A DNA stretch of 13,307 nucleotides from Thermococcus sp. JdFR-02 (GTDB lineage: Archaea; Methanobacteriota_B; Thermococci; Thermococcales; Thermococcaceae), in contig MTLP01000027.1 of assembly GCA_002009975.1 (NCBI GenBank), positions 1-13,307 of the forward strand, read 5' to 3'. Position numbers and translations under genes: made by a program. Positions 1 through 13,307 of this stretch are shown here, piece by piece. Each line of letters starts with the position of its first letter. Position 1 is the stretch's first letter. A model generated the notes under the pieces. The model was given only the letters and a program-made list of their open reading frames with translations. It was not told the DNA's origin and did not search any database.

Positions 1-112
1 TTTGTAGAATAGGTTAGTTTGGTAGAATAGCCCGTTTTTTTATGGGCAAACTGAAAAACCAAGGATAAATAAATCCCCCCACATAAGCATCAACGCCAAT
101 TCGTCCCCTTCA

Positions 113-127
113 CTTATAAATCTTTTG
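113..127 (-). promoter_or_regulatory. Putative BRE/TATA promoter firing leftwards downstream of priS
   Basis: Minus strand CAAAAGA-TTTATAAG is a near-consensus Thermococcales promoter; its target is not visible in the window. Confidence 0.5.
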
Positions 128-146
128 AAGAAGAGTTAGAAACGAA

Positions 147-1175
147 TTATTTCTCCTGAGTTTCAAGCCAGATTTTGTAAGCTTCTTCAACCTCTCTTTT
201 TCTGAACTTTGGAACAGCATCTTTGAATGGGTTGAACTTCTTCAAATCATCTTCTTTTGTCCCAATGTATGTAGCCACAAGCCCAACTTTTGAATGCAGA
301 CTTGAAGGTACCCTTAAAATCCTCTTAACATCTATTGTAACTCTACCATCAAAATAGGCTTTTGAAAATGTGCTTGAGAGAGCAAAGAGCTTTAACAGGG
401 TTTTATATCCTATGCCTCTTGGAAAAGCTGTTAGAAGTGCCTTTTTCACGAATCCTCTAAGAATCTCTTCCCTACTGTTTAAAATCTTGTTTATGTTGCT
501 CTTGTTTATCCCAATATTCCTGAGGTGTTCAAAGCGAATTCTCATTATGAAATAACCAAAGCGAAGTCTAAAAGCTCTATAATAACCAGAAGAGAGCATA
601 ATTTTCCTGCTTTGCAAATCTTCAAAAGTTATCTCGTTAGCTGTACTTATATATGCCAAAATCTTTTCCCTTGCCTTTGCATCTAAATCCAAAGCCCAAT
701 CATCGAGTATTCTTATGTGATAACCTCTTCCTGAATACACCAAGTGGATATCTTCAAAGCCAAAATCCTCCTTTAAAATGACGAGGGTATCTTTGGCTAA
801 TTCTTTTGCATCTTCTAAGCAAATTGGGCAGACAGTTCCAGCTTCATGATTACAGCGCCTTAAAGGCAAGTCTTTTGCATCAATGTCAAAAACTAATTCT
901 GCTCCTAACCAACCCTCCATTTCTTTAGGTTCATCATAGAGAGCTACACTTGAATAAATAGCGTAGGGAGATGTAATTCTAACGTAATCCTCTAAATCTC
1001 TAACATCGTGAAAAACATTCTTTCTATCGCTTGGTCCTTCTCCATTATGATCAAAACCAAATTCTCTGTTCTCAAGAGTTTTTACTATAAAATCGGGCAA
1101 TTTTTTAGCACTCCATTCCCTCGAATAGTAAAGCTTTCTTTCCTTTTTTGTTGCTTCTCTCAACAGCTCACTCAC
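147..1175 (-). CDS. priS: DNA primase catalytic (small) subunit PriS
   Basis: AEP motifs: REFGFD, ELVFDIDAKD (catalytic DxD), zinc-binding CNHxxxxxCPIC, YSGRGYH, DGRVTIDVKRILRVPSSLH. The ORF track starts at 1193; GTG at 1175 (MSELLREATK) is preferred because it follows GAGGAG/AGTGA and overlaps the priL stop by 8 nt. Confidence 0.97.
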   Translation of the reverse strand: MSELLREATKKERKLYYSREWSAKKLPDFIVKTLENREFGFDHNGEGPSDRKNVFHDVRDLEDYVRITSPYAIYSSVALYDEPKEMEGWLGAELVFDIDAKDLPLRRCNHEAGTVCPICLEDAKELAKDTLVILKEDFGFEDIHLVYSGRGYHIRILDDWALDLDAKAREKILAYISTANEITFEDLQSRKIMLSSGYYRAFRLRFGYFIMRIRFEHLRNIGINKSNINKILNSREEILRGFVKKALLTAFPRGIGYKTLLKLFALSSTFSKAYFDGRVTIDVKRILRVPSSLHSKVGLVATYIGTKEDDLKKFNPFKDAVPKFRKREVEEAYKIWLETQEK

Positions 1176-2445
1176 TCTTTTCACTCTCCTCACTCCTCTT
1201 TCTGCTCTCCAAATAGAGCTTTCTCAAATAATAAGTTAAGGGATTTCTAATATACCTGCAATCTTTGTCAGGCTTGCAGAGTTGGGGTGCATTGGCCCTT
1301 ATCTTATCACAATTTGGCGGGAAGTACCAAGTTGAGTTGCCGCTTTCTTCTAAGGTTGGATAGCTCGTATAACCAAAGCCGAGATGATACCAAACATTCT
1401 TAACTTCATTAGGCTGATCTTCAAAAAGTGGAGGATTACAGCGATTACCAGCGTCGATAATTATAGGAAGAATCTCCTTCTCAATGATGCTCAAATCCTT
1501 TATGCAGTCCTTAACTCTAACGTTCCTTTTAGATGGATTTGGACAAATCCTTGCATAACTTATGAAAGACGTTAATAAAACTGTGATCGCATAGTTTCTG
1601 AGTCCAGAGGGGACACCACCTAAGGCTATCTTTATGCATGGTGGGAATAGATCAAATTTTAGTGGTTGTGCACTAGCTTTTTCAATTATCCCAAGCCTTT
1701 TTTTGAAATATTTCCTAGCTATTTCGTTCAATCGATGATATAGCTCGGAGTAATAATTTTGAAAAATCTCATCCCTATTTTCGTAAATTTTATTTACCGC
1801 TCGTTCGATGTTAAGTTCAAATGAACGTTGCCATGCGTTGATTAACATTCCCTTTTGTATATATACATAACCTCCTTTGACATAATATTTCTTTAAATCA
1901 TCCCCAATAAATTTGAAAAAATCGCTAATGTGAATCTTGAATTTCAACTCTTTATTCTCCCTATCTTCTATATCCAGTTCATCTTTCCATAATATCTTTT
2001 CCAGAATTATCCTATCTCTCTGATCAATTTCGTTTTTTGTAACGGCTTTGACTTTTATAGATAGCTGGTTAACTAGATTGTTAAGCTTCTCTGTTTGTTT
2101 AGAGGGCAGTATTTCCTTTTTGGTTTCTCTAATTCGTTGTTCAAATCTTGATCTATATATCTCTAAATTTGTTAACTTTACTAGTTCCATCTCTAGTCCA
2201 TATGGAGAAACCACTAATGCTCCTAATAGGGCATAAAATGTCATGATATCATAGAGTTCACCTTTTGTTCTATCCAAGTTAATTATATCATCAGGAGGAT
2301 AATTTTGAGTATTTATCCACGAAACTCTTTCTAGTGCTGTATTAACGTCTATTCTCGCTGGAATAATACTAAGAAACTCATTTAATGATTCAATACCTAC
2401 ACTGTTGAGATACTCCAAAGCTTTTTTACCAAACGGGTCTAACAT
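1168..2445 (-). CDS. priL: DNA primase large (regulatory) subunit PriL
   Basis: MLDPFG N-terminus and C-terminal Fe-S domain motifs FPPCI, G(L)RNYAITVLLTSF, WYFPPNCDKI, LCKPDKDCRYIRNPLTYY. AGGTGAG RBS upstream; overlaps priS. Confidence 0.96.
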   Translation of the reverse strand: MLDPFGKKALEYLNSVGIESLNEFLSIIPARIDVNTALERVSWINTQNYPPDDIINLDRTKGELYDIMTFYALLGALVVSPYGLEMELVKLTNLEIYRSRFEQRIRETKKEILPSKQTEKLNNLVNQLSIKVKAVTKNEIDQRDRIILEKILWKDELDIEDRENKELKFKIHISDFFKFIGDDLKKYYVKGGYVYIQKGMLINAWQRSFELNIERAVNKIYENRDEIFQNYYSELYHRLNEIARKYFKKRLGIIEKASAQPLKFDLFPPCIKIALGGVPSGLRNYAITVLLTSFISYARICPNPSKRNVRVKDCIKDLSIIEKEILPIIIDAGNRCNPPLFEDQPNEVKNVWYHLGFGYTSYPTLEESGNSTWYFPPNCDKIRANAPQLCKPDKDCRYIRNPLTYYLRKLYLESRKRSEESEKSE

Positions 2446-2486
2446 TGACTCACCTTAAAGTAAATTGAGAATTGAAAATAAAACAC

Positions 2487-4391
2487 TTATGCTTTTCTCA
2501 CCTCAACCCATGTAGAGTGATAAGCTGATGCCTTGCCATAATCATCATTTACTTCATCCGTTGTAAGGAAATTAACGTTCCATCCCAATAGCTTAGCCCA
2601 GAAAGCCTTATACAATACAACAACCCCTTTTTGAACATCTTCTGTAACTTTTACCTTAGTTTTGATGCTCCCAAATTCATTGTAGACCTCAACCAAGTCA
2701 CCATCACGAATACCTCTCTCTTCAGCATCTTTTGGATTCATGTAAAGATTAGCATCGATAATTTTGTAGGTGTTATGGTATTGACTTGTGACTGTAAATC
2801 TGTATGTTGGACTTAGCAACTGCAGTCCTTTGCCTTCAATGGGTTTGTATTGTGGAAACGGCGAAAGACCTCTTTTGAGAGCTCTTTGGGAGTAAAATTC
2901 AATCTTTCCACTTGGTGTATTATATCCACGCTCTTTCTCCTCAACTTTAATAAATCCTTTCTCTTTCAGCTCATCAAAGCTCAATCCATTCATCTCAAGG
3001 ATCTTTCTGATTATTTCTTCCTCACTTTCGTAGAGGTAAGGATTTTTAATCCCCAAGGCTTTGGCTAGGAGCTTTGTCACTTCATAGTTACTTTTTCCTG
3101 CTATTTCAATGACCTTCTCATTTAATGAAATGTAGCGATGATAGTAGGAATCGGCTATGTCTAATCTTTCAAAGAAAGTGTTCGCTGGTAAAACAACATC
3201 AGCAAATAAAGCCGTATCTGTCAAGAATATATCATGAACGACAACAAAGACATCGTTTTCTTTTAGGGCTTTTCTAAGGCGATTTTGATTTGGTAAAGAT
3301 GCTAGGGGATTTGAATTGTAAATATAGAGGAACTTTATCTCACCATTTTCAATGTATTTCGCTAATTCCATTTGAGGAATCCTTTTGATTGGTTTTGTCC
3401 TTAAGAATTTGCCCTCAGCGTAGCTTTTGTCTATTGTTTTCATGTCATAGATAAAACCAAATTTGTGACCGACTAATGCAGGTAGGATACCTACAGCTCT
3501 AATTGCCTCTCCCCCGATTAAACTTCTTTGAAATCCATAACCTATGTGAATTATCCCTCTTTTTTCTGCATATTCAAAAGCAAACTCCTCAATCCTTTCT
3601 CTATTTAATCCAGTCTTTTTACTAATAAAGTCCAAGTCAAGCTTTGAAACGTACTCTTTAAACTCCTTAAAACCAAAGACATTTTTCCTAACAAAATCCC
3701 TATCATAAATTTCGTTTTCAATTATAAGCTTTGCAATTCCTAAGGCAAACAGAACATCTGTATTTGGCTTTATTCGGAAAAACTTATCACTTCTCTTTGC
3801 AGTTTCTGTCTTTATTACATCAACGCTCCAAATTTGTAAACCAAAGCGTTTAGCGAGCATGAAGCCATGAAGATTTGTCCAGAAGGCATTAATTCCCCAA
3901 TATACAATTAGTTCCTGTTCCCTTAGCTTTTCAGGATCTAACCCTATAGCAGTCCCATAAATATCCTTTAAAGCTTCCTGTCCAGCTTTATCGCAGATTC
4001 CATAATCTAGAAAGCTCGTGTTTAAGTAATGGAAAAGTCTAAGTGGAAAAGCGTAGTTTATAACTCCTCTATCCCCAGCGTATTGATAAACTAAAACGCT
4101 CTCACTCCCATAATCCCTAATTGTTTCCTCTAACTTTTTGGCGATTAAGTTAATTGCTTCATCCCAAGAACTTTCTCTAAAATTGTTTTTACCCCTCTCT
4201 CCAGTTCTAATTAATGGAGTCTTCAATCTTTCTTCACTATGAACCCATTTTGGAAGCATAGCTCCTTTAGGACATAAAAATCCACCTGTTATTGGATGAT
4301 TTGGATTTCCTCTCACCTTTATCTTGTCATTTTTAATCTCAGTGACCATAGCACAAGTGTCATAGCAATCCCTCATACAGGTATTGAACAT
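2487..4391 (-). CDS. Molybdopterin (Mo/W-bisPGD, DMSO reductase family) oxidoreductase, cytoplasmic, substrate unknown
   Basis: N-terminal [4Fe-4S] motif CMRDCYDTC...GFLCPKG; RLKTPLIR, SWDEAI, DIFLTDTALFADVVLPA; C-terminal molydopterin-binding domain MNPKDAEERGIRDGDLVEVYN. No twin-arginine leader. GGAGGG RBS. Confidence 0.92.
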   Translation of the reverse strand: MFNTCMRDCYDTCAMVTEIKNDKIKVRGNPNHPITGGFLCPKGAMLPKWVHSEERLKTPLIRTGERGKNNFRESSWDEAINLIAKKLEETIRDYGSESVLVYQYAGDRGVINYAFPLRLFHYLNTSFLDYGICDKAGQEALKDIYGTAIGLDPEKLREQELIVYWGINAFWTNLHGFMLAKRFGLQIWSVDVIKTETAKRSDKFFRIKPNTDVLFALGIAKLIIENEIYDRDFVRKNVFGFKEFKEYVSKLDLDFISKKTGLNRERIEEFAFEYAEKRGIIHIGYGFQRSLIGGEAIRAVGILPALVGHKFGFIYDMKTIDKSYAEGKFLRTKPIKRIPQMELAKYIENGEIKFLYIYNSNPLASLPNQNRLRKALKENDVFVVVHDIFLTDTALFADVVLPANTFFERLDIADSYYHRYISLNEKVIEIAGKSNYEVTKLLAKALGIKNPYLYESEEEIIRKILEMNGLSFDELKEKGFIKVEEKERGYNTPSGKIEFYSQRALKRGLSPFPQYKPIEGKGLQLLSPTYRFTVTSQYHNTYKIIDANLYMNPKDAEERGIRDGDLVEVYNEFGSIKTKVKVTEDVQKGVVVLYKAFWAKLLGWNVNFLTTDEVNDDYGKASAYHSTWVEVRKA

Positions 4392-4500
4392 AATGCTCCC
4401 TCCTTTAGGATAGCTACAACAAAAAAATAAAAAAGTTTTGACACCATTAAAAATTCAGTGACAAATATTGTAGAAAATACAGAAGATTAAAGAACTTACT

Positions 4501-4517
4501 CCAAAAATCTTATATTA
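4501..4517 (+). promoter_or_regulatory. Putative BRE/TATA promoter for the KaiC-like gene pair
   Basis: CCAAAAATC-TTATATTA matches the archaeal purine-rich BRE + TATA pattern, about 90 nt upstream of ATG 4604. Confidence 0.55.
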
Positions 4518-4603
4518 CCTAAGGGAATAAAATAAAAATTAGACATGCTTCAATGTGAAGTTTGGAAACCGATCATGAAATTACTAATCATAAGGTGAGC
4601 AAA

Positions 4604-5353
4604 ATGGATAACCGCCCGATTATAAAAAGAATAAAAAGCGGAATCCCAGGCTTTGATGAATTAATTCAAGGCGGATTCCCTGAAAACACAACGATATTAG
4701 TTTCTGGTAGTACTGGTACTGGAAAAACAACTTTTGGGGCTCAATTTGTATATATGGGAGCCAAGGAATATGGAGAGCCTGGAGTGTTTGTTACATTAGA
4801 AGAGAGGGCTAAAGACTTGAGAAGAGAGGCAAAATCATTTGGATGGGATTTTGAAAAATACGAAAAAGAAGGCTTAATAGCGATAGTTGATGGTGTTAGC
4901 TCTACTGTTGGACTACCATCTGAAGAAAGATTCGCACTTGAAGATAGATTCAACGTTGACAACTTTTTGAGATATGTATACAAGGTTGTCAAACAGATAA
5001 ATGCTAAGCGTCTCGTTATAGACTCAGTTCCATCATTGGCTTTTAGGCTAGAGGAGGAGAAGAAAATCAGAGAGGTTCTCCTAAAACTAAACACGATATT
5101 GCTTGAAATGGGGGTAACTACTATTCTGACAACTGAAGCCCCAGACCCAGCAGCTGGTAGAATAAGTAGGTATGGAATGGAGGAGTATATTTCGAGAGGT
5201 GTTGTTATTCTAGACCTACAAGAAAAGAATATCGAGCTAAAGCGTTATCTCCTCATAAGAAAGATGCGTGAAACTAAACACTCTATGAGAAAATACCCAT
5301 TTGAGATAACGGATCATGGAATCGTTGTGTACCCAAGTGGAGAAATTTACTGA
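4604..5353 (+). CDS. KaiC-like / RecA-superfamily ATPase (COG0467), single domain, intact motifs
   Basis: SGIPGFDELIQGGFP, Walker A GSTGTGKT, catalytic TLEE, Walker B RLVIDS, C-terminal IRKMRETKHS. Closely resembles Pyrococcus horikoshii PH0186 as recalled. Start moved from TTG 4562 to ATG 4604, which follows the AGGTGAG RBS. Confidence 0.93.
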   Translation: MDNRPIIKRIKSGIPGFDELIQGGFPENTTILVSGSTGTGKTTFGAQFVYMGAKEYGEPGVFVTLEERAKDLRREAKSFGWDFEKYEKEGLIAIVDGVSSTVGLPSEERFALEDRFNVDNFLRYVYKVVKQINAKRLVIDSVPSLAFRLEEEKKIREVLLKLNTILLEMGVTTILTTEAPDPAAGRISRYGMEEYISRGVVILDLQEKNIELKRYLLIRKMRETKHSMRKYPFEITDHGIVVYPSGEIY

Positions 5354-5377
5354 CGTTAATTGCAAGGGGGATCCTAA

Positions 5378-6151
5378 TTGGTGCAGACAATGTCACCCTT
5401 ACTTGAGGAAGATAAGATTGAAAGAAGTGTTGAACGCATCCCTACTGGCATAATAGATGATCTAATTATGGGAGGAATACCGAGAGGAAGCGTGATTCTT
5501 TTAATTGGAGACCCAAAAGCAGGTAAAACAACTTTTGTCACCCAATTCATGTATAATCAACTAAAAAATGGAATTTCTACTATTGGAATATTAACCGATG
5601 TTGCAAAGCATGAGTTTATTAGCAATGCGCTGGATTTTGGATGGGATTTTATGCCGTTCTTAGAGGAGAGGGTACATTTCCTAGATGCTTATTCCCAGAG
5701 ATTAAGGGGAAAGCCGAGATTCAGCTTTGATGAAACTGTCGTTACAGATGTTAGCGATACGACTCAACTAATAGAGGCTATAAAAGATGTAACTTTAAAA
5801 GTCCTTGCCGATAAAAATCCCCCGATGATAACTGGTGTAATCTCTTCATTAACCCCGATCTTTTTTGAAACAGAGATTAAGCAGATTTACAAGTTTTTAG
5901 AGGATTTGAAAGACCTTGTGCATAGACAAAAGCAAGTATGGATATTAGAGATGAACTCCGGAATAGAAGAACCCCAAATAGAGATGATGGTAAAGGCAAT
6001 AGTCGATGGAATTATCGAGATGAAGCTCATGGAAGAGCAAAGAACCTTAAAGAGGTATCTTAGGGTTTATGGAATGAGGAGAACCAAGCACGTTCTCTCA
6101 TGGGTACCCTATGAAATAACCAACTATGGAATTCAAGTTCAAAGCATCTAA
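5378..6151 (+). CDS. KaiC-like / RecA-superfamily ATPase paralog with degenerate catalytic motifs
   Basis: RIPTGIIDDLIMGGIPRGS, Walker A GDPKAGKT, FGWDF, RYLRVYGMRRTKH. The EE motif is replaced (ILTD) and Walker B lacks its Asp (GVISS). Start could be TTG 5378, GTG 5381 or ATG 5390; AGGGGGA upstream. Confidence 0.88.
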   Translation: MVQTMSPLLEEDKIERSVERIPTGIIDDLIMGGIPRGSVILLIGDPKAGKTTFVTQFMYNQLKNGISTIGILTDVAKHEFISNALDFGWDFMPFLEERVHFLDAYSQRLRGKPRFSFDETVVTDVSDTTQLIEAIKDVTLKVLADKNPPMITGVISSLTPIFFETEIKQIYKFLEDLKDLVHRQKQVWILEMNSGIEEPQIEMMVKAIVDGIIEMKLMEEQRTLKRYLRVYGMRRTKHVLSWVPYEITNYGIQVQSI

Positions 6152-6156
6152 CTCAA

Positions 6157-6172
6157 CCAAAAAATTTTTAAT
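6157..6172 (+). promoter_or_regulatory. Putative BRE/TATA promoter for a leaderless OB-fold/TctA transcript
   Basis: CCAAAAAA-TTTTTAAT ends 23 nt before ATG 6195, which has no RBS. This is the spacing expected for a leaderless archaeal mRNA. Confidence 0.55.
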
Positions 6173-6194
6173 TCTGAAGCTGTTACTTATAATC

Positions 6195-7388
6195 ATGGTC
6201 AAAAAGAAAATATTAAATTTAGTATTGCTGACACTTGTTATAGTTTTATTGACGGGGCTCTATACAATTGGTGGTGATGTTGTTTCATCAAAAACTCTCC
6301 AAGAAGCCGAAAAAGGAGATATAGTGGAATTCCATGGAATGTGTGTAAAGGCTAAGGACAGCTACAGCGTGTTATTCAATGGAAAAGAGAGCATTGTTGT
6401 GTTTGAAAGGCTAAACGTTAGCCAAATATACGAGATTAAGGGTAAGCTCTATCAGGAAAAGGGTATAATTCCAATTTCAATCAAAAAAGCAGAAAAAGAA
6501 AAGTTGAATGTAACAAAAATAAAGGGCGCTATTTGGTGGGAAAACAGCAAATGTTACCTACTAACCCCACAGAAGATTTACTTACAAAGATGTTTGGAGA
6601 TAGAAAAAGGAAAAGTTATTGAAGCTGAGGGGATAATTTATGATGATATCTTTTACCCAATTTTTTATAGGGAGGGGGACTATTTAAAGAATCCAATGGA
6701 TGGAATGCCTTACAAAATTAATGGGACCGTTCTTTACGGAGGAAATCCTGCTACAATCTGGAAAAATGAAAAGATAAAAGTTTATTTGCCATACAAAGTT
6801 ACTCTCAAAGAAGGGCAAAAAGTTGAAATTCTTGGAATAGCCGACTTAAAATCTACATTAACTCTTTATGTCAGCTCACAAGAGGATGTGAAGTTATTAA
6901 ATAACACAGAAGTCTCTAAAATAGGCAATGAAAGAGTTGGAGATATTGTAAGTGGAACATGCCAGGTTATTAAGAGCTCAAGATTTTTGAAATTAAACTG
7001 CACAAAGCTGAGGTTTTATGGATTTAATGCTAATGTGGGAGACATAATTAAATTCAAAGCCCTTAGAAGAGAAAACTCATTGTACTGCCTAAGCTGTAGC
7101 ATTAAAATTCCTAGAAGGAGCTTAGAGAACTCAATCTGTGCTCCAAAGGAAGGAATAATAAAAGTCCATGGTCAGGTTAAAGAAGTTAAGATTTACAAAA
7201 ATGGTTTCGGATTAGCCAACATTACCTACAGGAACTGCTCTATTCTGCTAAAACTAAGGAAGTCTCTAAATATAGCAATAGCTGAGAATCAAACTATAAC
7301 CGCTTTTGGATACTACACAACATATAGAGGAAAGCCAGCTTTGGAAGTACAATCGAGGGAAGATATATGTTTAGAGAACTGTTCTTAG
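6195..7388 (+). CDS. Membrane-anchored/secreted protein with predicted tandem OB-fold domains
   Basis: MVKKK plus hydrophobic helix (ILNLVLLTLVIVLLTGLYTI), then about five 60-80 aa beta-rich units with recurring GDIVEFHG / GKVIEAEG / GQKVEILG / GDIIKFKA / NQTITAFG strands. The last ends GYYTTYRGKPALEVQSREDI, resembling RPA/YhcR-type OB folds. The ORF track start (6126) overlaps the upstream gene; 6195 is preferred. Confidence 0.7.
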   Translation: MVKKKILNLVLLTLVIVLLTGLYTIGGDVVSSKTLQEAEKGDIVEFHGMCVKAKDSYSVLFNGKESIVVFERLNVSQIYEIKGKLYQEKGIIPISIKKAEKEKLNVTKIKGAIWWENSKCYLLTPQKIYLQRCLEIEKGKVIEAEGIIYDDIFYPIFYREGDYLKNPMDGMPYKINGTVLYGGNPATIWKNEKIKVYLPYKVTLKEGQKVEILGIADLKSTLTLYVSSQEDVKLLNNTEVSKIGNERVGDIVSGTCQVIKSSRFLKLNCTKLRFYGFNANVGDIIKFKALRRENSLYCLSCSIKIPRRSLENSICAPKEGIIKVHGQVKEVKIYKNGFGLANITYRNCSILLKLRKSLNIAIAENQTITAFGYYTTYRGKPALEVQSREDICLENCS

Positions 7389-8506
7389 GAATGTTTTTTG
7401 GCACATTCACCGGCATAACTCCGGCTTTGCACGTCAACACATTAGCTGTGGTAATAGGGAACTTTAAGATTCAAGAATTTAACTTTGTGATTTTGGTTTT
7501 TACTATGGGCTTAACCCATACTTTTCTTGACTCAATTCCTTCTACCTTTTTGGGCGTTCCTGAAGAAGACACAGCTTTAACTGTTTTACCCGCTCATAGA
7601 CTAGTATTAAAGGGAAAAGCGTTAGAGGTGATTAACATTTCCATAACGGCAAGTCTTCTATCTCTCTTCTTGGCGATTCCACTAATACCCTTATATTCCC
7701 ATCTAGTCAACCTTTATACCCCATCCATTGGGAAAGTCTTTGTTTTCGCCATGTTTTTGATCTTAATCTTCACGGAGAGAGGAATCAAAAAGATCTCTGC
7801 TCTTATTATATTTCTCCTTTCAGGCATTTTAGGACTCCTAATAGATTACTTACCCTTAAGAGAGCCTTATTTTCATATATTTGTTGGACTTTTTGGCATA
7901 CCAACTTTACTACAAGCATTAAACTCTTCATTTGAAGTTGGAGATGAAAACATAGAAATGAACAAAGGCAATTTCTTAAGGTTTTCATTTTTAGGGACGT
8001 TTTTTGGAATGCTCGCTTCTCTCTTACCAACCTTCACATCCTCTCAAGCAGCATTGATAGGAAGTTTTATTTCAAAAGATGAGCGCTCATTTCTAACGAT
8101 TGCTTTCTCAGCTAACACTGCAAACTTCTTTTTCAGCTTGCTTAATTTCTACTTCACTGGAAGAACAAGGAACGGTATCCTTGTAACAATAAAAGAGGGC
8201 TATCCGATATTAAGCAAAGAAGAGCTGATATTCTTAATCCTCTCCTCTTTTTTAGTTGGAATAATCGTCTATATCTACGGACTATTTCTTGCAAGAACCT
8301 TTGGAAAAATTATTCAAAGATTAAATTACAAAGCCTTGAGCATTTGTATAATCTCGGGAATATTTCTCTTCTCATTCTATTTGGATAGTGTCCTAGGAAT
8401 AGCGGTTTTAGTAACCTCTTCCTTAATTGGCCTACTTGCAGTAAATTTAGGAGTCAAAAGAACAAACTGCATGGGAGTTTTAATGCTAAAAATAATGATA
8501 AAATGA
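7367..8506 (+). CDS. Archaeal TctA-family (tripartite tricarboxylate transporter-like, COG1784) permease
   Basis: Highly hydrophobic. TctA signatures GTFTGITPALHVN, HTFLDSIPSTFLGVP, LPAHRLVLKGKA; internal repeat LGMFFGTFTGITP vs LGTFFGMLASLLP; C-terminal GVKRTNCMG. Overlaps the upstream gene by 22 nt. Confidence 0.88.
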   Translation: MFRELFLGMFFGTFTGITPALHVNTLAVVIGNFKIQEFNFVILVFTMGLTHTFLDSIPSTFLGVPEEDTALTVLPAHRLVLKGKALEVINISITASLLSLFLAIPLIPLYSHLVNLYTPSIGKVFVFAMFLILIFTERGIKKISALIIFLLSGILGLLIDYLPLREPYFHIFVGLFGIPTLLQALNSSFEVGDENIEMNKGNFLRFSFLGTFFGMLASLLPTFTSSQAALIGSFISKDERSFLTIAFSANTANFFFSLLNFYFTGRTRNGILVTIKEGYPILSKEELIFLILSSFLVGIIVYIYGLFLARTFGKIIQRLNYKALSICIISGIFLFSFYLDSVLGIAVLVTSSLIGLLAVNLGVKRTNCMGVLMLKIMIK

Positions 8507-8509
8507 AGA

Positions 8510-8809
8510 TCAGCCCTTTAAAAGTCTTTGAAATTCGTTATAATTTGTAACTATCCTTTTTCCGTCCAAAGTTTCAAAATAAATCTTCTTTATTTGAATC
8601 TTCTTCATTGAGGTATATTTCATCCTTGGGGGATCATAAGAACCGGGTTCAACTATTTCATCCTCTATTACATAGGTTTTTAGCTCAGGTTCCCCAATAT
8701 ATCTCCAAACTTCAAAGAAAACCTCTGGTGACAAATGGATTTCCCCTTCTACTTCCGTATAGTCTGCACCAATATCTTCTAAGAACTCCTTTATTACCTC
8801 TAAGTGCAT
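8510..8809 (-). CDS. Conserved small hypothetical protein of Thermococcales (probably DUF5748 family)
   Basis: 99-aa ORF with acidic N-terminal half and EPGSYDPP motif. GGTGA RBS precedes ATG 8809 (track start 8821). Family name recalled, not searched. Confidence 0.75.
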   Translation of the reverse strand: MHLEVIKEFLEDIGADYTEVEGEIHLSPEVFFEVWRYIGEPELKTYVIEDEIVEPGSYDPPRMKYTSMKKIQIKKIYFETLDGKRIVTNYNEFQRLLKG

Positions 8810-8877
8810 AGAAATCACCATATCTATGTATAGGTCTCATTGGTTAAATACTTACCGCCTTTAAATACGTAAAGCAC

Positions 8878-8893
8878 AAAAAGGATATATTAA
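8878..8893 (+). promoter_or_regulatory. Putative BRE/TATA promoter of the RlmI-like gene
   Basis: AAAAAGGA-TATATTAA about 30 nt upstream of ATG 8924; RBS GGGGTGAG at 8913-8920. Confidence 0.55.
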
Positions 8894-8923
8894 GAAATAA
8901 AGAGGGTAGAGAGGGGTGAGAAA

Positions 8924-10114
8924 ATGGCAAAAGTTTACGTTGATGCTCAAGCTTATCGTGCCCTTGAAAAAGGTGCAATGATTATTTTCAAAAAAGGCGT
9001 GATAAGAGTTGATGGTGAAATAAAGCCTGGAGATATAGTGGAAGTTTACTCAAGAGGAGGGAAATTCTTAGGTAAGGGTTTTGCCAATCCTAACTCAAAC
9101 ATTATGGTGAGACTTGTAACTAAGGAGAGAGATGTAGAGGTCGGAAAAGAATTGTTTAAAGAGCGCATAAGGAAGGCAAATGAATACCGGAAGAAGGTTT
9201 TGGGTTGTAACAAAGTGTATAGAATGGTTTATGGTGAAGCGGACTATTTACCGGGCTTAATTGTAGATAGATTCAATGATATAGCAGCAATCCAAATTTC
9301 AAGCGCTGGAATGGAACGCTTTAAATTGGATGTTGCTGAGGCGATATTGGAAGTCGAGCCAGAAATCGAAACTATTTTTGAGAAGAACACTGGAAGAGCA
9401 AGAAGAAGAGAGGGACTACCCGAAATCGAGAGAGTTCTGTTGGGAAAAGAAAAATATAGAACGATAATAAAGGAAGGAAAAGCAAAGTTTATAGTTGACA
9501 TGAGAGGACAAAAGACTGGGTTTTTCTTGGATCAAAGAGAAAATAGAATAGCTTTGGAGAAGTATGTAAAACCAGGAATGGAGGTTTTGGATGTTTTTAC
9601 ATACACCGGAGGATTTGCCATACATGCAGCGGTTGCAGGTGCTGAGAAAATCATTGCAATTGATAAATCAGCACAAGCCATAAAGCAGGCAAGGGAAAAT
9701 GCAAAATTGAATGGCGTTGAGGATAAGATGGAATTTATTGTAGGTTCTGCATTTCAGGAGATGGAGCGTCTAATTAAAGAAGGAAGGAAATTTGATATCG
9801 TGATTTTAGACCCTCCTGCATTTGTCCAGCATGAGAAAGACCTAAAGAATGGGTTGAGAGCATACTTTAACGTTAATTACCAAGGATTAAGGCTTTTAAA
9901 GGATGGAGGAATCTTAGTAACCTGCTCATGTTCTCAACACGTGGATATGCAGCTATTCAAAGACATGATTATTGCAGCATCAGCAAAGGCTGGCAAATTT
10001 CTAAAGATGCTTGAGCCCTATAGAACCCAAGCTCCAGATCATCCAATCCTCATGGCATCAAAAGACACCGAATATTTGAAATGCCTCTTCCTTTATGTTG
10101 AGGACATGAAGTGA
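8924..10114 (+). CDS. RlmI/YccW-like class I SAM-dependent rRNA cytosine-C5 methyltransferase (COG1092) with PUA domain
   Basis: N-terminal PUA-like domain; GEADYLPGLIVDRF, GQKTGFFLDQRENR, VLDVFTYTGGF, ILDPPAF, catalytic TCSCS, APDHP, EYLK. The target nucleotide cannot be determined from sequence. Confidence 0.93.
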   Translation: MAKVYVDAQAYRALEKGAMIIFKKGVIRVDGEIKPGDIVEVYSRGGKFLGKGFANPNSNIMVRLVTKERDVEVGKELFKERIRKANEYRKKVLGCNKVYRMVYGEADYLPGLIVDRFNDIAAIQISSAGMERFKLDVAEAILEVEPEIETIFEKNTGRARRREGLPEIERVLLGKEKYRTIIKEGKAKFIVDMRGQKTGFFLDQRENRIALEKYVKPGMEVLDVFTYTGGFAIHAAVAGAEKIIAIDKSAQAIKQARENAKLNGVEDKMEFIVGSAFQEMERLIKEGRKFDIVILDPPAFVQHEKDLKNGLRAYFNVNYQGLRLLKDGGILVTCSCSQHVDMQLFKDMIIAASAKAGKFLKMLEPYRTQAPDHPILMASKDTEYLKCLFLYVEDMK

Positions 10115-11589
10115 TGTCTATGAAGCTGGAGGATTTGATAATTAGAGAATTCTTTTTTCAGGAATTTAGGCATAGAATTAACTATTATGGGCAGGAAAAA
10201 TTTAAGAAGTTTTTAATAAGAGCTCCGTTGATACAAATAACCTTTACATCCATAGCATTCTTCATGTTTTCAGTATTCTTTTTAAAAGTTATGAAGCAAA
10301 TCGGAGAAACAGAGTTAATTTACGCTTCAATAACTGCTTCTATGCTTTCATTCATGACCTTAATTTCAATGTTTTTAACTGTAGAATTTTTCCATGCCGT
10401 ATCTAAAATTGGATTAATAAAACCCCTTTCTTATCTTCCCGTAAAAATTGAGCTTCTTCCTCTTAAAGCTTGGACCAAATATTATGTGCCTCCACTAATA
10501 GCGATTATGATTCCCTTTTACTTCAAAGCTTTGCTTTATTCAAAAATAACCTTCATCATTTCAATAGTGTGGACACTAATCTCTATCTCCATAGGGTATG
10601 GACTTGGGGCTTTAATTTCAACATATTCTCTAAGATTTCAGAGAAAAGGAGTGCTTGCTGATGCTTTAAAGCTAATACTAAGGAGTTTTATCGTCTTTCT
10701 AGTTCTACTCTTCATTTTCTATGGGATAGTATCTCCAGAAGTTTTTAAAGAAACTGCTATAATTAATAAGATCAATCCCCACCTCTATCCAGTTGTTCAA
10801 GCGATAACTCTCTTTTTCTCAATACAGGGAATTGTTAAATGGAAAGACATTGTCGCATATATTATCTTCTCGCTCTCTGTTCTTCTTATGGGAAACTCCC
10901 TAGTGATAAAGCACCTAAATGAAGGTGTGTATTCATCTGAGCTGAAAAATCCATTTAAACCATCTTCCTTTGGAAGATTTCCTTCCATAGTTGCTAAAGA
11001 CTTAAGACTAGCACTTAGAAGAGCTACTTCTATATTCATCATTATACTCCCTCTCGTCTTGATTCTGCCATTTCTCTTCCTTGAAGAGATTGATATCGCT
11101 ACATGGACTTTAGTAGTTAGCAGTACAGCTGCAATTTCATCACTTAATGTTCAAATTCTCTTAATTGAAGAATATAAAAGTGGATGGTTTGTGTTCTCTT
11201 TACCAATCACTCTTAGAGAATTCAGGAACTCAAAAGCCTTTGCTACAATTTTGCTTTATTTCCCTATTCTCGCGCTTATTACTCTCTCCGCTTATCTAAG
11301 TAAAATAGAAATTTGGAGCTTCCTCTTTATTCTCGGGTTAATAAAAAATGCCCTAATTTCAAGATTTGCCGTATTTTGGTTGACAAGAGATGTTGAAAGC
11401 GAATACACAATGATGCCTGCTTATCTAACAATAACTGATGCACTTGCAATATTTTCCTTTGCATTTTTCATAGTTACTTTGCCAGTAATCATAATAAAGT
11501 TCACATATAGTTTGGTGGGAATATACGGCGGTGTTGTATCTTTGGCTTTAGATTTTGTTTTGTTGTTCCTCCTCTATAAAGGAACATAA
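10111..11589 (+). CDS. Polytopic membrane protein, probable ABC-2-type exporter permease (two fused halves)
   Basis: About 12 hydrophobic segments; ABC-2-like motifs IVAKDLRLALRR and EEYKSGWFVFSLPITLREFRNSKA, echoed in the first half by LIKPLSYLPVK. Start could be GTG 10111, ATG 10114 or ATG 10120. Confidence 0.68.
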   Translation: MMSMKLEDLIIREFFFQEFRHRINYYGQEKFKKFLIRAPLIQITFTSIAFFMFSVFFLKVMKQIGETELIYASITASMLSFMTLISMFLTVEFFHAVSKIGLIKPLSYLPVKIELLPLKAWTKYYVPPLIAIMIPFYFKALLYSKITFIISIVWTLISISIGYGLGALISTYSLRFQRKGVLADALKLILRSFIVFLVLLFIFYGIVSPEVFKETAIINKINPHLYPVVQAITLFFSIQGIVKWKDIVAYIIFSLSVLLMGNSLVIKHLNEGVYSSELKNPFKPSSFGRFPSIVAKDLRLALRRATSIFIIILPLVLILPFLFLEEIDIATWTLVVSSTAAISSLNVQILLIEEYKSGWFVFSLPITLREFRNSKAFATILLYFPILALITLSAYLSKIEIWSFLFILGLIKNALISRFAVFWLTRDVESEYTMMPAYLTITDALAIFSFAFFIVTLPVIIIKFTYSLVGIYGGVVSLALDFVLLFLLYKGT

Positions 11590-11594
11590 TCAGG

Positions 11595-11608
11595 CACAAG
11601 CTTATAAA
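11595..11608 (+). promoter_or_regulatory. BRE/TATA promoter of the C/D box sRNA
   Basis: CACAAG-CTTATAAA; the TATA ends 25 nt upstream of the sRNA 5' stem at 11633. Confidence 0.65.
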
Positions 11609-11611
11609 TTA

Positions 11612-11620
11612 GAAAAAAAC
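11612..11620 (-). terminator. Putative oligo(U) terminator for the RlmF-related gene
   Basis: A7 at 11613-11619 on + reads T7 on -, the first long T-run downstream of the stop at 11692. Confidence 0.4.
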
Positions 11621-11632
11621 CAAATGAAGAAT

Positions 11633-11691
11633 GGCGGATGAAGAGAAAGCACCTCCTCTGAAAGGTGAAGACACGCCCACGGTCTGACGCC
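11633..11691 (+). ncRNA. Archaeal C/D box 2'-O-methylation guide sRNA (dual guide)
   Basis: Terminal stem GGCG(11633-36)/CGCC(11688-91); box C ATGAAGA (11638-44); 13-nt spacer GAAAGCACCTCCT; box D' CTGA (11658-61); box C' GTGAAGA (11665-71); 12-nt spacer CACGCCCACGGT; box D CTGA (11684-87). GC-rich island in an AT-rich intergenic region, with an upstream TATA. Confidence 0.92.
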
Positions 11692-12426
11692 TTAAATTTG
11701 GAAAATCAGCGAGTGTCTTATCCTTGTCCCAGCTTTGAATGTTATATCCTTAACTTTGTATCCACATTTTTCTGCTTCCTTCTTTATAGCATTCAAAAGA
11801 GGCTCTTTATTGGGCAAAAAGAGAGCAACTTTTCCTTTTGATCTCAAGTAGTCTTTTGCTTCACTCAAAAGCATTATTGAGAATTCCTCTCCATATTTTC
11901 CTCCACCAACAGCTTCAATTTTGGTGAGAACGCCCTTTGTTGGTTTTTCATAATAAGGAGGTGCTGAAAAAATAACATCAAACTTCTCTTCTTTTGGGAT
12001 TACTCCTCTAATTAGCCCCCCATTACTCCTGATTAGCCTTACTTTAGCGTTGTTTTTCTCTATGTTTGCTTTTGCATATCTAAGAAACTCTTCACTAACC
12101 TCAGTTGCCCAAACTTCACAATCAAATAGCTTATTCGCCATGATGGACATCAAAGCTGAATGCCCAGTGCCGATCTCAAGAACCTTCTCTTTTCCTCTCA
12201 AAAAGGTCTTAAGGAAAATATAGCGAGAAATCGGAGGGGTTACCAATGCTTTAGGATGATAATTAATATCCAAGCCAAAAACAGCTTTAGCTATTGCCCT
12301 ATTATATAAAATGCGAGCTTCCCTATTGCCAAAATCAAGTTTTCCATCTCTAACATATTTTTTAAGCTCTGGAAAAACCTTTACAGCATCTTGAATTTTT
12401 AAGCCAAGCTCTTTGATTTGCTTCAT
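11692..12426 (-). CDS. RlmF-related (DUF890-like) SAM-dependent methyltransferase
   Basis: LDFGNREARILYNRAIAK N-terminus, LVTPPISRY, SAM motif VLEIGTGHSA, WATEV, motif IV FDVIFSAPPYY, GGGKYGE, FKAGTRIR. Confidence 0.85.
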   Translation of the reverse strand: MKQIKELGLKIQDAVKVFPELKKYVRDGKLDFGNREARILYNRAIAKAVFGLDINYHPKALVTPPISRYIFLKTFLRGKEKVLEIGTGHSALMSIMANKLFDCEVWATEVSEEFLRYAKANIEKNNAKVRLIRSNGGLIRGVIPKEEKFDVIFSAPPYYEKPTKGVLTKIEAVGGGKYGEEFSIMLLSEAKDYLRSKGKVALFLPNKEPLLNAIKKEAEKCGYKVKDITFKAGTRIRHSLIFQI

Positions 12427-12449
12427 ATGTCGCTTTAAATGAGTAGCTG

Positions 12450-12464
12450 AATAAATATTTTTTC
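12450..12464 (-). promoter_or_regulatory. Putative BRE/TATA promoter for a leaderless RlmF-related mRNA, directly after a T-rich terminator-like tract of the M20 gene
   Basis: Minus strand reads TTTTCCTCTTTTT-GAAAAAATA-TTTATT; the TATA-like element ends 24 nt before ATG 12426, which has no RBS. Confidence 0.5.
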
Positions 12465-12479
12465 AAAAAGAGGAAAATA

Positions 12480-13307
12480 TCAAAGCAAGGCTAGAGCCGC
12501 CATCACTTTTGCATCTTCTATAATATTGTTAATTTTTGCATATTCATTTGGTTGATGTGCTGTTTCATCTAAAGTTGCCCACACAACGGCTGGAATTCCA
12601 AGCATTCTAAAGTAAGCAGCAAATGTTCCTCCTCCAATACCACCAACGTGAGCTTCTTTTCCTCTAAGCTTTTTAATTGCCTCTCTTAAGAGTTTAACAA
12701 TTTCACTATCCTTTGGTGTTGGAGCTGGGGCATCTACTCTTTGCAAAACTTCAAGCTCAATTTTTGGCAAAACTTCACCATTAATCTCTCTCCTGTACTC
12801 TTCTTCAATTTTTTCAGCTATTTCTTTTGCATCTTTTAGAATATCATCGAGATTATATTGAGGCAAAACCCTACAGTCAAAGATTAGTTCATGCTCTCCA
12901 GGGGCAATATTGGGGGCATCACTTGGATTTTTAACTATTGTAGGTTCAAAAGTGCTTTCAGGAGGATCAAAGACTTCATCTTTGGCATTGTATTTTTCGT
13001 GTAAGAATTTGTCCAATCTCAAAGCATAATCTAGAGCAACTCTATGGGCGTTTAAGCCCTTATCTGGCATACTTGCATGAACCTGCTTACCTTTAACCTT
13101 AATCTCCATCCAAAGAATGCTTTTCTCAGCTATTTCGATAAAAGTACCTTCTTCGTTTCCACCATCTGGTACTAGGACTAGGTCGTTTTTTCTGAACAAC
13201 TCTGGGTGGTTTTTGATTAGCCATTTTAATCCGTACTTGCTTCCTGTTTCTTCGTCACTAACAAATGCTAGGATTATTGTTCTTTTTGGTCTTATTCCCA
13301 AGTTCAT
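12480..13307 (-). CDS. M20 family metallopeptidase/deacylase (ArgE/DapE-like), 5' end outside the window
   Basis: FVSDEETGS, VPDGG, AEKSILW, GKQVHASMP, NIAPG, FDCR, GGGTFA, AHQPNEY. The N-terminal metal ligands are absent, so the gene starts beyond 13307. Confidence 0.92.
   Translation of the reverse strand: MNLGIRPKRTIILAFVSDEETGSKYGLKWLIKNHPELFRKNDLVLVPDGGNEEGTFIEIAEKSILWMEIKVKGKQVHASMPDKGLNAHRVALDYALRLDKFLHEKYNAKDEVFDPPESTFEPTIVKNPSDAPNIAPGEHELIFDCRVLPQYNLDDILKDAKEIAEKIEEEYRREINGEVLPKIELEVLQRVDAPAPTPKDSEIVKLLREAIKKLRGKEAHVGGIGGGTFAAYFRMLGIPAVVWATLDETAHQPNEYAKINNIIEDAKVMAALALL

Follow-up and report, generated by a model that had tools for sequence, protein, structure and literature searches.

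A membrane-anchored OB-fold protein and a short TctA-like permease encoded as a conserved pair in Thermococcus sp. JdFR-02: a candidate archaeal DNA-uptake module

A stretch of 13,307 nucleotides from Thermococcus sp. JdFR-02 (GenBank assembly GCA_002009975.1, contig MTLP01000027.1, positions 1 to 13,307; the window hereafter) carries two genes, 6195-7388 (+) and 7367-8506 (+), which overlap by 22 nt and encode, respectively, a 397-aa membrane-anchored protein with five oligonucleotide/oligosaccharide-binding (OB) folds and a 379-aa TctA-like permease. The pair is best explained as a single transcription unit and functional module, representing in the Thermococcales an archaeal system of a membrane-anchored OB protein and a short TctA-like permease. 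From methanogen genetics and the shared architecture, we consider it somewhat more probable than otherwise that this unit acts in the uptake of extracellular DNA. The DNA-uptake reading is an already published hypothesis, here extended to the Thermococcales.

The AlphaFold2 (AF2) model of the 397-aa protein (predicted local distance difference test score, pLDDT, 92.6; predicted template modelling score, pTM, 0.77; 38-sequence alignment) showed an N-terminal helix at residues 2-26 and five beta-barrel units, in agreement with the single anchor and the approximately five beta-rich units proposed in a preliminary description made from the sequence alone. The units were recognized as OB folds by Foldseek and VIA-align against solved structures, as that description had supposed. 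The top Foldseek matches in the PDB were tandem-OB nucleic-acid binders, with p204 HINab in complex with double-stranded DNA at E 4e-8, and further matches were obtained to ribosomal bS1, LEF-3, BRCA2, telomere end-binding proteins, Teb1, Unr cold-shock repeats, LysRS and Stn1; MCM N-terminal domains were aligned by VIA to residues 258-395 of the model. The unit fold and its tandem arrangement are those of RPA/SSB-type and HIN-type binders, at a sequence identity of 8-18%, and the conserved Cys residues of units 4 and 5 are reminiscent of zinc motifs in the OB domains of RPA and MCM. The RPA/SSB/HIN-type binders are cytoplasmic or nuclear and soluble, whereas the window protein is membrane-anchored and apparently extracellular and glycosylated.

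At the sequence level, no Pfam or NCBIfam match to the 397-aa protein was found (PF01336 gave none at E<=0.01), and PF01336 was weak in 20 of 38 relatives (best E 3.4e-5, all under the 27-bit cut-off level). A PDB sequence search returned only noise (E>0.07), and the units had no similarity to each other detectable by hhalign (best probability 41%). Unit 3 aligned with the TctA-adjacent OB protein of Methanofastidiosia (hhalign probability 77.6%, E 1.9e-5, 83 columns), and the Cys residues of unit 4 were conserved in 37-38 of 38 sequences. A word-indexed search gave 51 matches, all in Thermococcales, and an exhaustive search of 1.84 billion representatives with a profile yielded 19 with E<=1e-3, none outside the family, the weaker ones being long repetitive proteins. 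The ESM Atlas, queried by features and not by structure, provided leads to archaeal 'OB-fold nucleic acid binding' clusters. In one Thermococcaceae genus (G003, G017 and G022) the OB partner had only 234-244 aa, covered profile positions 9-229 (approximately the first half) and was located directly 5' of the permease.

The N-terminus of the 397-aa protein consists of M-V-K-K-K followed by about 20 hydrophobic residues, the only hydrophobic segment of the protein, and this pattern is retained in relatives. The ectodomain contains nine N-x-S/T sequons against a mean of 2.3 in shuffled sequences (0 of 2000 shuffles reached nine); members of the family have 4-11 of them, with four conserved positions, one of which is present in 38 of 38 sequences. 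Nine Cys columns are conserved in 31-38 of 38 sequences. Since the protein is sequon-rich, has conserved Cys residues and conforms to the positive-inside rule, these features argue for, without proving, an N-in, C-out orientation with a glycosylated extracellular domain, that is, for an OB array outside the cell. The richness in basic and aromatic residues pointed out in the preliminary description was borne out, with 57 K/R versus 41 D/E and 35 F/W/Y in the ectodomain and a net charge of +16 to +17.

Pfam PF01970 (TctA) matched the product of the second gene at E 8.6e-39, with 133.8 bits where the cut-off is 28.9 and over profile positions 4-422 of 423, as expected for the TctA-like permease proposed beforehand; no other TctA is encoded in the genome, whose completeness is 99.99%. 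In the AF2 model of the permease (pLDDT 87.7, pTM 0.87) an element made of a long helix, a loop and a short helix is seen at residues 2-31 and recurs at 200-233. The internal repeat that had been claimed stands as a helix pattern in the model and lacks statistical support: hhalign of the N-terminal half against the C-terminal half was not significant (probability 0.4%, E 0.15), its 15 columns lying on these same two elements. Foldseek with the model gave nothing at E<=1e-3, and no match to PDB chains was obtained with the sequence. The best structural match was an OPT-family transporter (barley YS1), a carrier of chelates and oligopeptides; the likeness to this and to other elevator-type carriers, DASS (INDY) and TRAP DctM/SiaQM, comes from the model, without a sequence match and with low scores falling under the tool's caution level for helical proteins. 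Conserved polar residues sit on two short hairpin-like loops of the model.

Relative to the canonical TctA of two Thermococcales genomes, the short archaeal form lacks the C-terminal 45-60 residues and has invariant loop motifs of its own (PGIHVNT, THTFLD, VLPAHR and RNG). In a quick IQ-TREE reconstruction of 55 rows, the permease was placed in an archaeal clade of 50 rows (Shimodaira-Hasegawa approximate likelihood ratio test, 98), apart from canonical TctA and from a third stand-alone type. Because of this separate position 'citrate transporter' is a poor label for the permease, as had been suspected, and the database name 'tripartite tricarboxylate transporter permease' is probably misleading for the short-form clade. 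A profile of the window-type permease scored 217-280 bits on permeases of about 400 aa from other families of the class, and only 94-103 bits on a second paralogue of Thermococcus; the 50-row clade takes in all of these permeases. Two Thermococcales genomes had tripartite tricarboxylate transporter genes of the bacterial type, whose TctA (498-513 aa) branched apart from the window permease: TctC, TctB and TctA in L026 (G046), and in L027 (G087) TctA with a TctC-like gene, the latter judged from its first residues only.

The reading frames and the 22-nt overlap given in the preliminary description were confirmed, together with a promoter-like sequence belonging to the pair. For the first gene the start at 6195 is favoured over that of a longer alternative reading frame beginning at 6126, because homologues of 376-421 aa align from residue 1 and relatives share the M-V-K/R plus hydrophobic start. 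Only 43 nt separate the stop codon of the preceding KaiC-like gene from this ATG. When the upstream regions of the window and 20 related loci were aligned at the start codon, a TATA-like motif was found at a matching distance in 21/21, and a TTACT-like motif, T[TA]AC[TC], at -16..-5 in 20/21. The sequence fits an archaeal promoter with a transcription factor B recognition element (BRE) and a TATA box, and the position of the TATA-like element, about 27 nt before the ATG, would imply a leaderless or nearly leaderless mRNA. Within the 3' end of the first gene, a Shine-Dalgarno-like GAGGG in front of the permease ATG suggests translational coupling. The permease start was found by a simple pattern in 13 of the 21 loci and was not located in the other eight; a motif of the same type precedes it in all 13, and the permease overlaps the first gene by 19-43 nt in 11 of these, with a 9-nt gap in the other two. 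A scan for sigma-70 promoters and terminators gave counts at the shuffle level, the model being bacterial and not meaningful for an archaeon.

Metatranscriptome contigs from two runs of one sample, belonging to a strain about 97% identical, bridge the second KaiC-like gene, the OB gene and the permease gene (5300-8228) and the latter two genes (6229-8152), although their depth resembles that of the DNA run from the same sample, so that they may stem from DNA carry-over, and they are silent on transcript ends. The OB and permease genes very likely constitute one functional unit.

The permease gene was located directly 3' of the OB gene in 24/24 loci fetched by the OB profile, and the pair was intact in a rearranged neighbourhood (L011) and where no other neighbour is shared (L013 and L025). 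The phylum sample comprised 121 genomes, all of the class Thermococci. The OB profile matched 86 of the 88 other Thermococcaceae genomes, the two misses being 73% and 78% complete. With the genome of the window included, 87 Thermococcaceae genomes had an OB match, and in 86 of them a TctA gene followed directly 3' on the same strand, separated from the OB gene by -7 to +115 nt; the remaining case is due to a contig break. In Methanofastidiosia an OB gene with an N-terminal transmembrane (TM) segment was found directly 5' of the permease in 3/3 loci (PF01336 E 7e-21 and 3e-17 in the two partners scanned). A gene of this kind also lay directly 5' of the permease in the one locus of a sister family (1/1; weak PF01336, 1e-4) and in 14/14 loci of the second Thermococcus paralogue (PF01336 E 4.6e-19 in the one representative scanned). 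Canonical TctA sets carry TctB and/or TctC instead of an OB partner. With the OB protein of Methanofastidiosia as query, a search for homologues recovered nothing besides that protein. Conservation of the pairing goes well past general synteny.

The second paralogous cluster, present in 14 sampled Thermococcus genomes (L042-L055; L056:1262-6107, minus strand) and absent from the genome of the window, encodes three proteins: one of 703 aa in which several OB domains match PF01336, a TctA-like permease of 443 aa, and a membrane protein of 466 aa in which a YdjM-type hydrolase domain is joined to an OB domain. This list of parts (OB, membrane domain and hydrolase) recalls ComEC.

A metagenome scan with a broad permease alignment left 80 loci, nine of the window type and 71 distant (29-37% identity), the latter not being independent, as 65/71 chain into one cluster at >=50% permease identity. 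An OB protein was encoded 5' of the permease in 8/8 window-type loci with an upstream flank, although at L067 only a 127-aa C-terminal piece was read. Among the distant loci, PF01336 was detected at E<=0.01 in the upstream protein of 11/71, mostly proteins of 95-119 aa with one TM helix and one OB. A hidden Markov model (HMM) built from 13 small OB partners matched 25/71 distant loci, all 5' on the same strand, 17 of them directly adjacent and 12 outside the training set; among the distant loci with >=400 nt of upstream flank the rate was 24/59. The same HMM matched the window protein at residues 321-385, which correspond to unit 5, and for this reason the C-terminal OB looks like the conserved core. 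Counterparts of the other window genes were found in 0/71 distant loci, and no linkage other than that of OB and permease genes persists in distant lineages of archaea.

Around the distant permease genes, the recurrent neighbours were PolD DP2 (22 loci), a Tyr/Trp-type tRNA synthetase and a GTPase, with RNase T, beta-CASP, PD-(D/E)XK nuclease, NDK and NrdD as single cases; no TctB, TctC or tricarboxylate enzyme was present among the 189 neighbour proteins scanned. A staphylococcal-type nuclease (SNase) homologue is encoded 5' of two metagenomic TctA-like genes, at L125:799-1437, directly adjacent and with an N-terminal TM segment, and at L140:1-585.

In the genome of the window no match was obtained to TctB (PF07331), with a model that does match in control genomes, nor to TctC (PF03401), which is also missing beside the pair; the same models detected the true TctC-TctB-TctA set at L026. 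The statement of the preliminary description that neither subunit adjoins the permease thus extends to the whole genome. The ComEC competence domain PF03772 likewise gave 0 matches there, its model matching in 10/14 control genomes. Like bacterial TctABC, the window pair combines a PF01970 membrane subunit with an extracytoplasmic partner encoded alongside; unlike it, the permease has 379 instead of about 500 aa, no C-terminal segment, different loop motifs and a clade of its own, TctB and TctC are lacking, and the partner is an OB array and not a Bug/TctC-type binding protein. In its proposed logic, in which a polytopic membrane protein is combined with a DNA receptor anchored in the membrane and exposed outside the cell, the pair is like ComEA/ComEC. 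ComEC carries an OB domain, and the ComEA receptor uses a helix-hairpin-helix; the window pair has no sequence relation to either protein, and its proposed receptor uses OB folds.

To our knowledge, the way in which DNA crosses the archaeal membrane in natural transformation is unsolved, and the sole genetic lead besides the crenarchaeal Ced system is the OB/TctA-like pair of Methanococcus maripaludis. The paper to which the preliminary description alluded exists and agrees with what was said of it there (Fonseca 2023, PMC10133366). In M. maripaludis JJ, in-frame deletion of either MMJJ_13020 or MMJJ_13030 abolished natural transformation and complementation rescued it; MMJJ_13020 is an OB-fold protein with one TM segment and MMJJ_13030 is TctA-like and has 11. 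The latter was the only membrane transporter recovered in the screen, which also yielded a thermonuclease, and replicating plasmids entered the cells by transformation only when both genes were present. Deletion of the TctA-like homologue in Methanoculleus thermophilus likewise abolished transformation, and the authors proposed the TctA-like protein as a candidate DNA transporter, noting the family in T. kodakarensis and P. furiosus and the lack of TctB and TctC in archaea (PMC10133366). The novelty of the proposal is weakened, since both the DNA-transporter hypothesis and the occurrence of the family in these two species already appear in that paper. According to the same text, BLASTp revealed no clear MMJJ_13020 homologue in Methanoculleus, which agrees with the fast divergence of the OB partner seen here. 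No later literature on the OB/TctA-like system and no genetic test in Thermococcales were found in the papers searched; the system is unmentioned in the available passages of a 2026 paper on T. kodakarensis transformation (PMC13385129) and of a 2024 M. maripaludis fitness preprint.

The methanogen pair and the window pair share an OB-fold gene with one TM segment followed by a short TctA-like permease gene of the same Pfam family, without TctB or TctC, and in the window the OB gene lies 5' of the permease gene on the same strand. The two were likened by description only, and they differ in that the window protein has five OB units and no Pfam match of its own. If the methanogen results apply to the Thermococcales, the most likely course is that the OB array would capture DNA at the cell surface, the conserved C-terminal OB would be positioned next to the membrane machinery, and the array would pass the DNA to a site of translocation which the TctA-like protein forms or on which that site depends, with translocation driven by an ion gradient rather than by ATP. 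The membrane-anchored SNase near two metagenomic TctA-like genes, together with the thermonuclease of the M. maripaludis screen, counts for a role in DNA uptake. Several observations weigh against it. The orthology of the window pair to MMJJ_13020/13030 would follow from shared architecture and family, and sequence searches place the window's OB partner family in Thermococcales only, its hhalign alignments to the partners of other lineages being marginal (6.5%, 46% and 78%). No OB partner was found at the permease loci of two other families (0/5 each), nor in the available flank of 46/71 distant loci. Among family members the ectodomain has a net charge between -8 and +28, which is zero or negative in 7/38, and no SNase is encoded in the genome of the window. 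The identification of the permease itself as the DNA channel, which the preliminary description had advanced, is weakened and is the weakest step, because the model looks like a solute carrier: it resembles the elevator-type secondary carriers (OPT/DASS/TRAP), and not a channel, and has conserved polar residues on its two short hairpin-like loops.

A wider version of the uptake proposal, which we regard as doubtful although conceivable, is that the OB protein and the short TctA-like carrier serve Euryarchaeota, and also many uncultivated archaea with small genomes, as their general translocon for DNA import, an analogue of ComEA/ComEC derived from an elevator-type carrier. The C-terminal OB would feed the strand, OB units would have been added by lineage (one in a metagenomic clade, two or three in Methanofastidiosia, five in Thermococcales), and the YdjM-type hydrolase of the second Thermococcus cluster would be the nuclease that ComEC has in one chain.

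The carrier-like fold, the conserved polar loop residues and the best structural match to an OPT-family transporter of chelates and oligopeptides would also suit a carrier that scavenges nucleotides, short oligonucleotides or some other small polyanion, with the OB ectodomain as a receptor in the functional place of TctC. An elevator mechanism would then carry a small product, and M. maripaludis mutants would lose transformation either indirectly or through a first binding step common to both processes. Neighbours at distant loci, which include NDK, NrdD, adenylosuccinate synthetase with IMPDH, SNase, RNase T and beta-CASP nucleases, are in line with this, but the list is no statistical test and 65/71 of the loci fall in one cluster. 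Plasmid transformation of M. maripaludis, which needs both genes, requires the entry of long DNA, and the TctA-like protein was the only transporter obtained in that screen (PMC10133366); on balance we judge a scavenging function unlikely.

A role in the cell envelope without any nucleic acid, in which the OB array binds glycans or a surface polymer, the permease moves a metabolite for the envelope or the pilus, and the effect on transformation is secondary, would account for the sequon-rich ectodomain with its variable net charge and recalls the requirement of type IV-like pili for archaeal transformation given in the same text (PMC10133366). The top structural matches are, however, overwhelmingly nucleic-acid binders, PF01336 is the Pfam family matched in the partners, an SNase is a neighbour in two loci, and no glycan-related neighbour is recurrent (one glycosyltransferase among 189), which leaves such a role improbable. 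An ordinary tripartite tricarboxylate (citrate) transporter with TctB and TctC encoded elsewhere would be consistent with the PF01970 placement and with the NCBI name 'tripartite tricarboxylate transporter permease' borne by many relatives. Against it, neither subunit is found anywhere in a nearly complete genome, the true Thermococcales TctA proteins (L026 and L027) are longer and in another clade, the loop motifs differ, the C-terminal segment is missing, and 0/189 neighbours are from tricarboxylate metabolism; we give this possibility hardly any weight.

Table 1. Genes and sequence features of the 13,307-nt window.
Feature	Positions	Strand	Evidence or remark
PriS	147-1193	-	
PriL	1168-2445	-	
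Molybdopterin oxidoreductase (Fe4S4, molybdopterin, dinucleotide-binding domains)	2487-4391	-	
KaiC-like ATPase, first	4562-5353	+	
KaiC-like ATPase, second	5378-6151	+	
BRE-like A-run	6159-6164	+	Read in sequence
TATA-like TTTTTAA	6165-6171	+	A-run and TATA centred about 27 nt 5' of ATG
Conserved TTACT motif between TATA box and start codon	6183-6187	+	May be a promoter-proximal or initiator element
397-aa membrane-anchored five-OB protein	6195-7388	+	
N-terminal signal-anchor helix, residues 2-26	6198-6272	+	Hydropathy, AF2; relatives keep M-V-K/R plus hydrophobic start
OB unit 1, residues ~36-101	6300-6497	+	AF2
OB unit 2, residues ~102-164	6498-6686	+	AF2 strands 107-160; whole-model Foldseek to tandem-OB proteins
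OB unit 3, residues ~165-240	6687-6914	+	AF2; carries conserved DGMP...VYLPY motif
OB unit 4, residues ~241-308	6915-7118	+	AF2; conserved Cys 256, 269, 298, 301
OB unit 5, residues ~309-397	7119-7385	+	AF2; conserved core OB
Shine-Dalgarno-like GAGGG in 3' end of first gene	7355-7359	+	7 nt before permease ATG
379-aa short archaeal TctA-like (DUF112/COG1784-type) permease	7367-8506	+	
DUF5748 gene	8510-8821	-	
PUA-domain RNA methyltransferase	8924-10114	+	
12-TM protein ('12TM_1', 492 aa)	10111-11589	+	
Methyltransferase	11692-12426	-	
M20 family metallo-hydrolase, truncated by window end	12480-13307	-	NF010589, E 8.5e-121; ArgE/DapE-like

The GC content is low across the window (33-39%), and the nearest named homologues of its proteins are from Thermococcus and Palaeococcus (53-62% identity). 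The first KaiC-like ATPase gene is kept 5' of the pair in 21/24 related loci, and close counterparts of the second (65-79% identity) occur only in the six nearest relatives. The KaiC-like ATPases were considered as a motor and rejected as part of the module, since they lie apart from the pair in L011, are lacking at L013 and L025 and were found in 0/71 distant loci; the gene is also missing at L021, whose contig starts within the OB gene. The molybdopterin oxidoreductase gene, which sits between PriL and the KaiC-like genes, has a counterpart in 0/24 related loci and looks like an insertion particular to the lineage of the window.

On the other side of the pair, the DUF5748 gene is convergent with the permease gene across a 3-nt gap and holds the same place in 19/24 related loci, including the rearranged L011, and was found in 0/71 distant loci. 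The PUA-domain RNA methyltransferase gene overlaps the 12TM_1 gene by 4 nt, the latter being present in only 2/24 related loci. The M20 hydrolase is similar, at the family level only, to a gene annotated as 'putative succinyl-diaminopimelate desuccinylase' that was also picked in the M. maripaludis screen (PMC10133366). PADLOC gave no defence-system match for the gene pair. PriS and PriL are near the pair in the window and in 19/24 Thermococci loci, PriL is directly 3' on the same strand of the TctA-like gene in another family of the class (L036 and L039), PolD DP2 is convergent and 3' of it in 22/71 metagenomic loci, and a bacterial-type Pol III alpha gene was found at L113; the presence of replication genes beside TctA-like genes may be plain synteny.

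To the published hypothesis the present analysis adds the structure of five OB folds, the signals for promoter and coupling, the finding that nearly all Thermococcaceae have the pair, a C-terminal OB core that is conserved between lineages, and the second Thermococcus cluster with a YdjM-type hydrolase. The two-gene architecture is nearly universal in the family to which the transformable T. kodakarensis and P. furiosus belong. The confidently modelled five-OB ectodomain provides a soluble domain for binding and structural work, and the pair is testable in T. kodakarensis.

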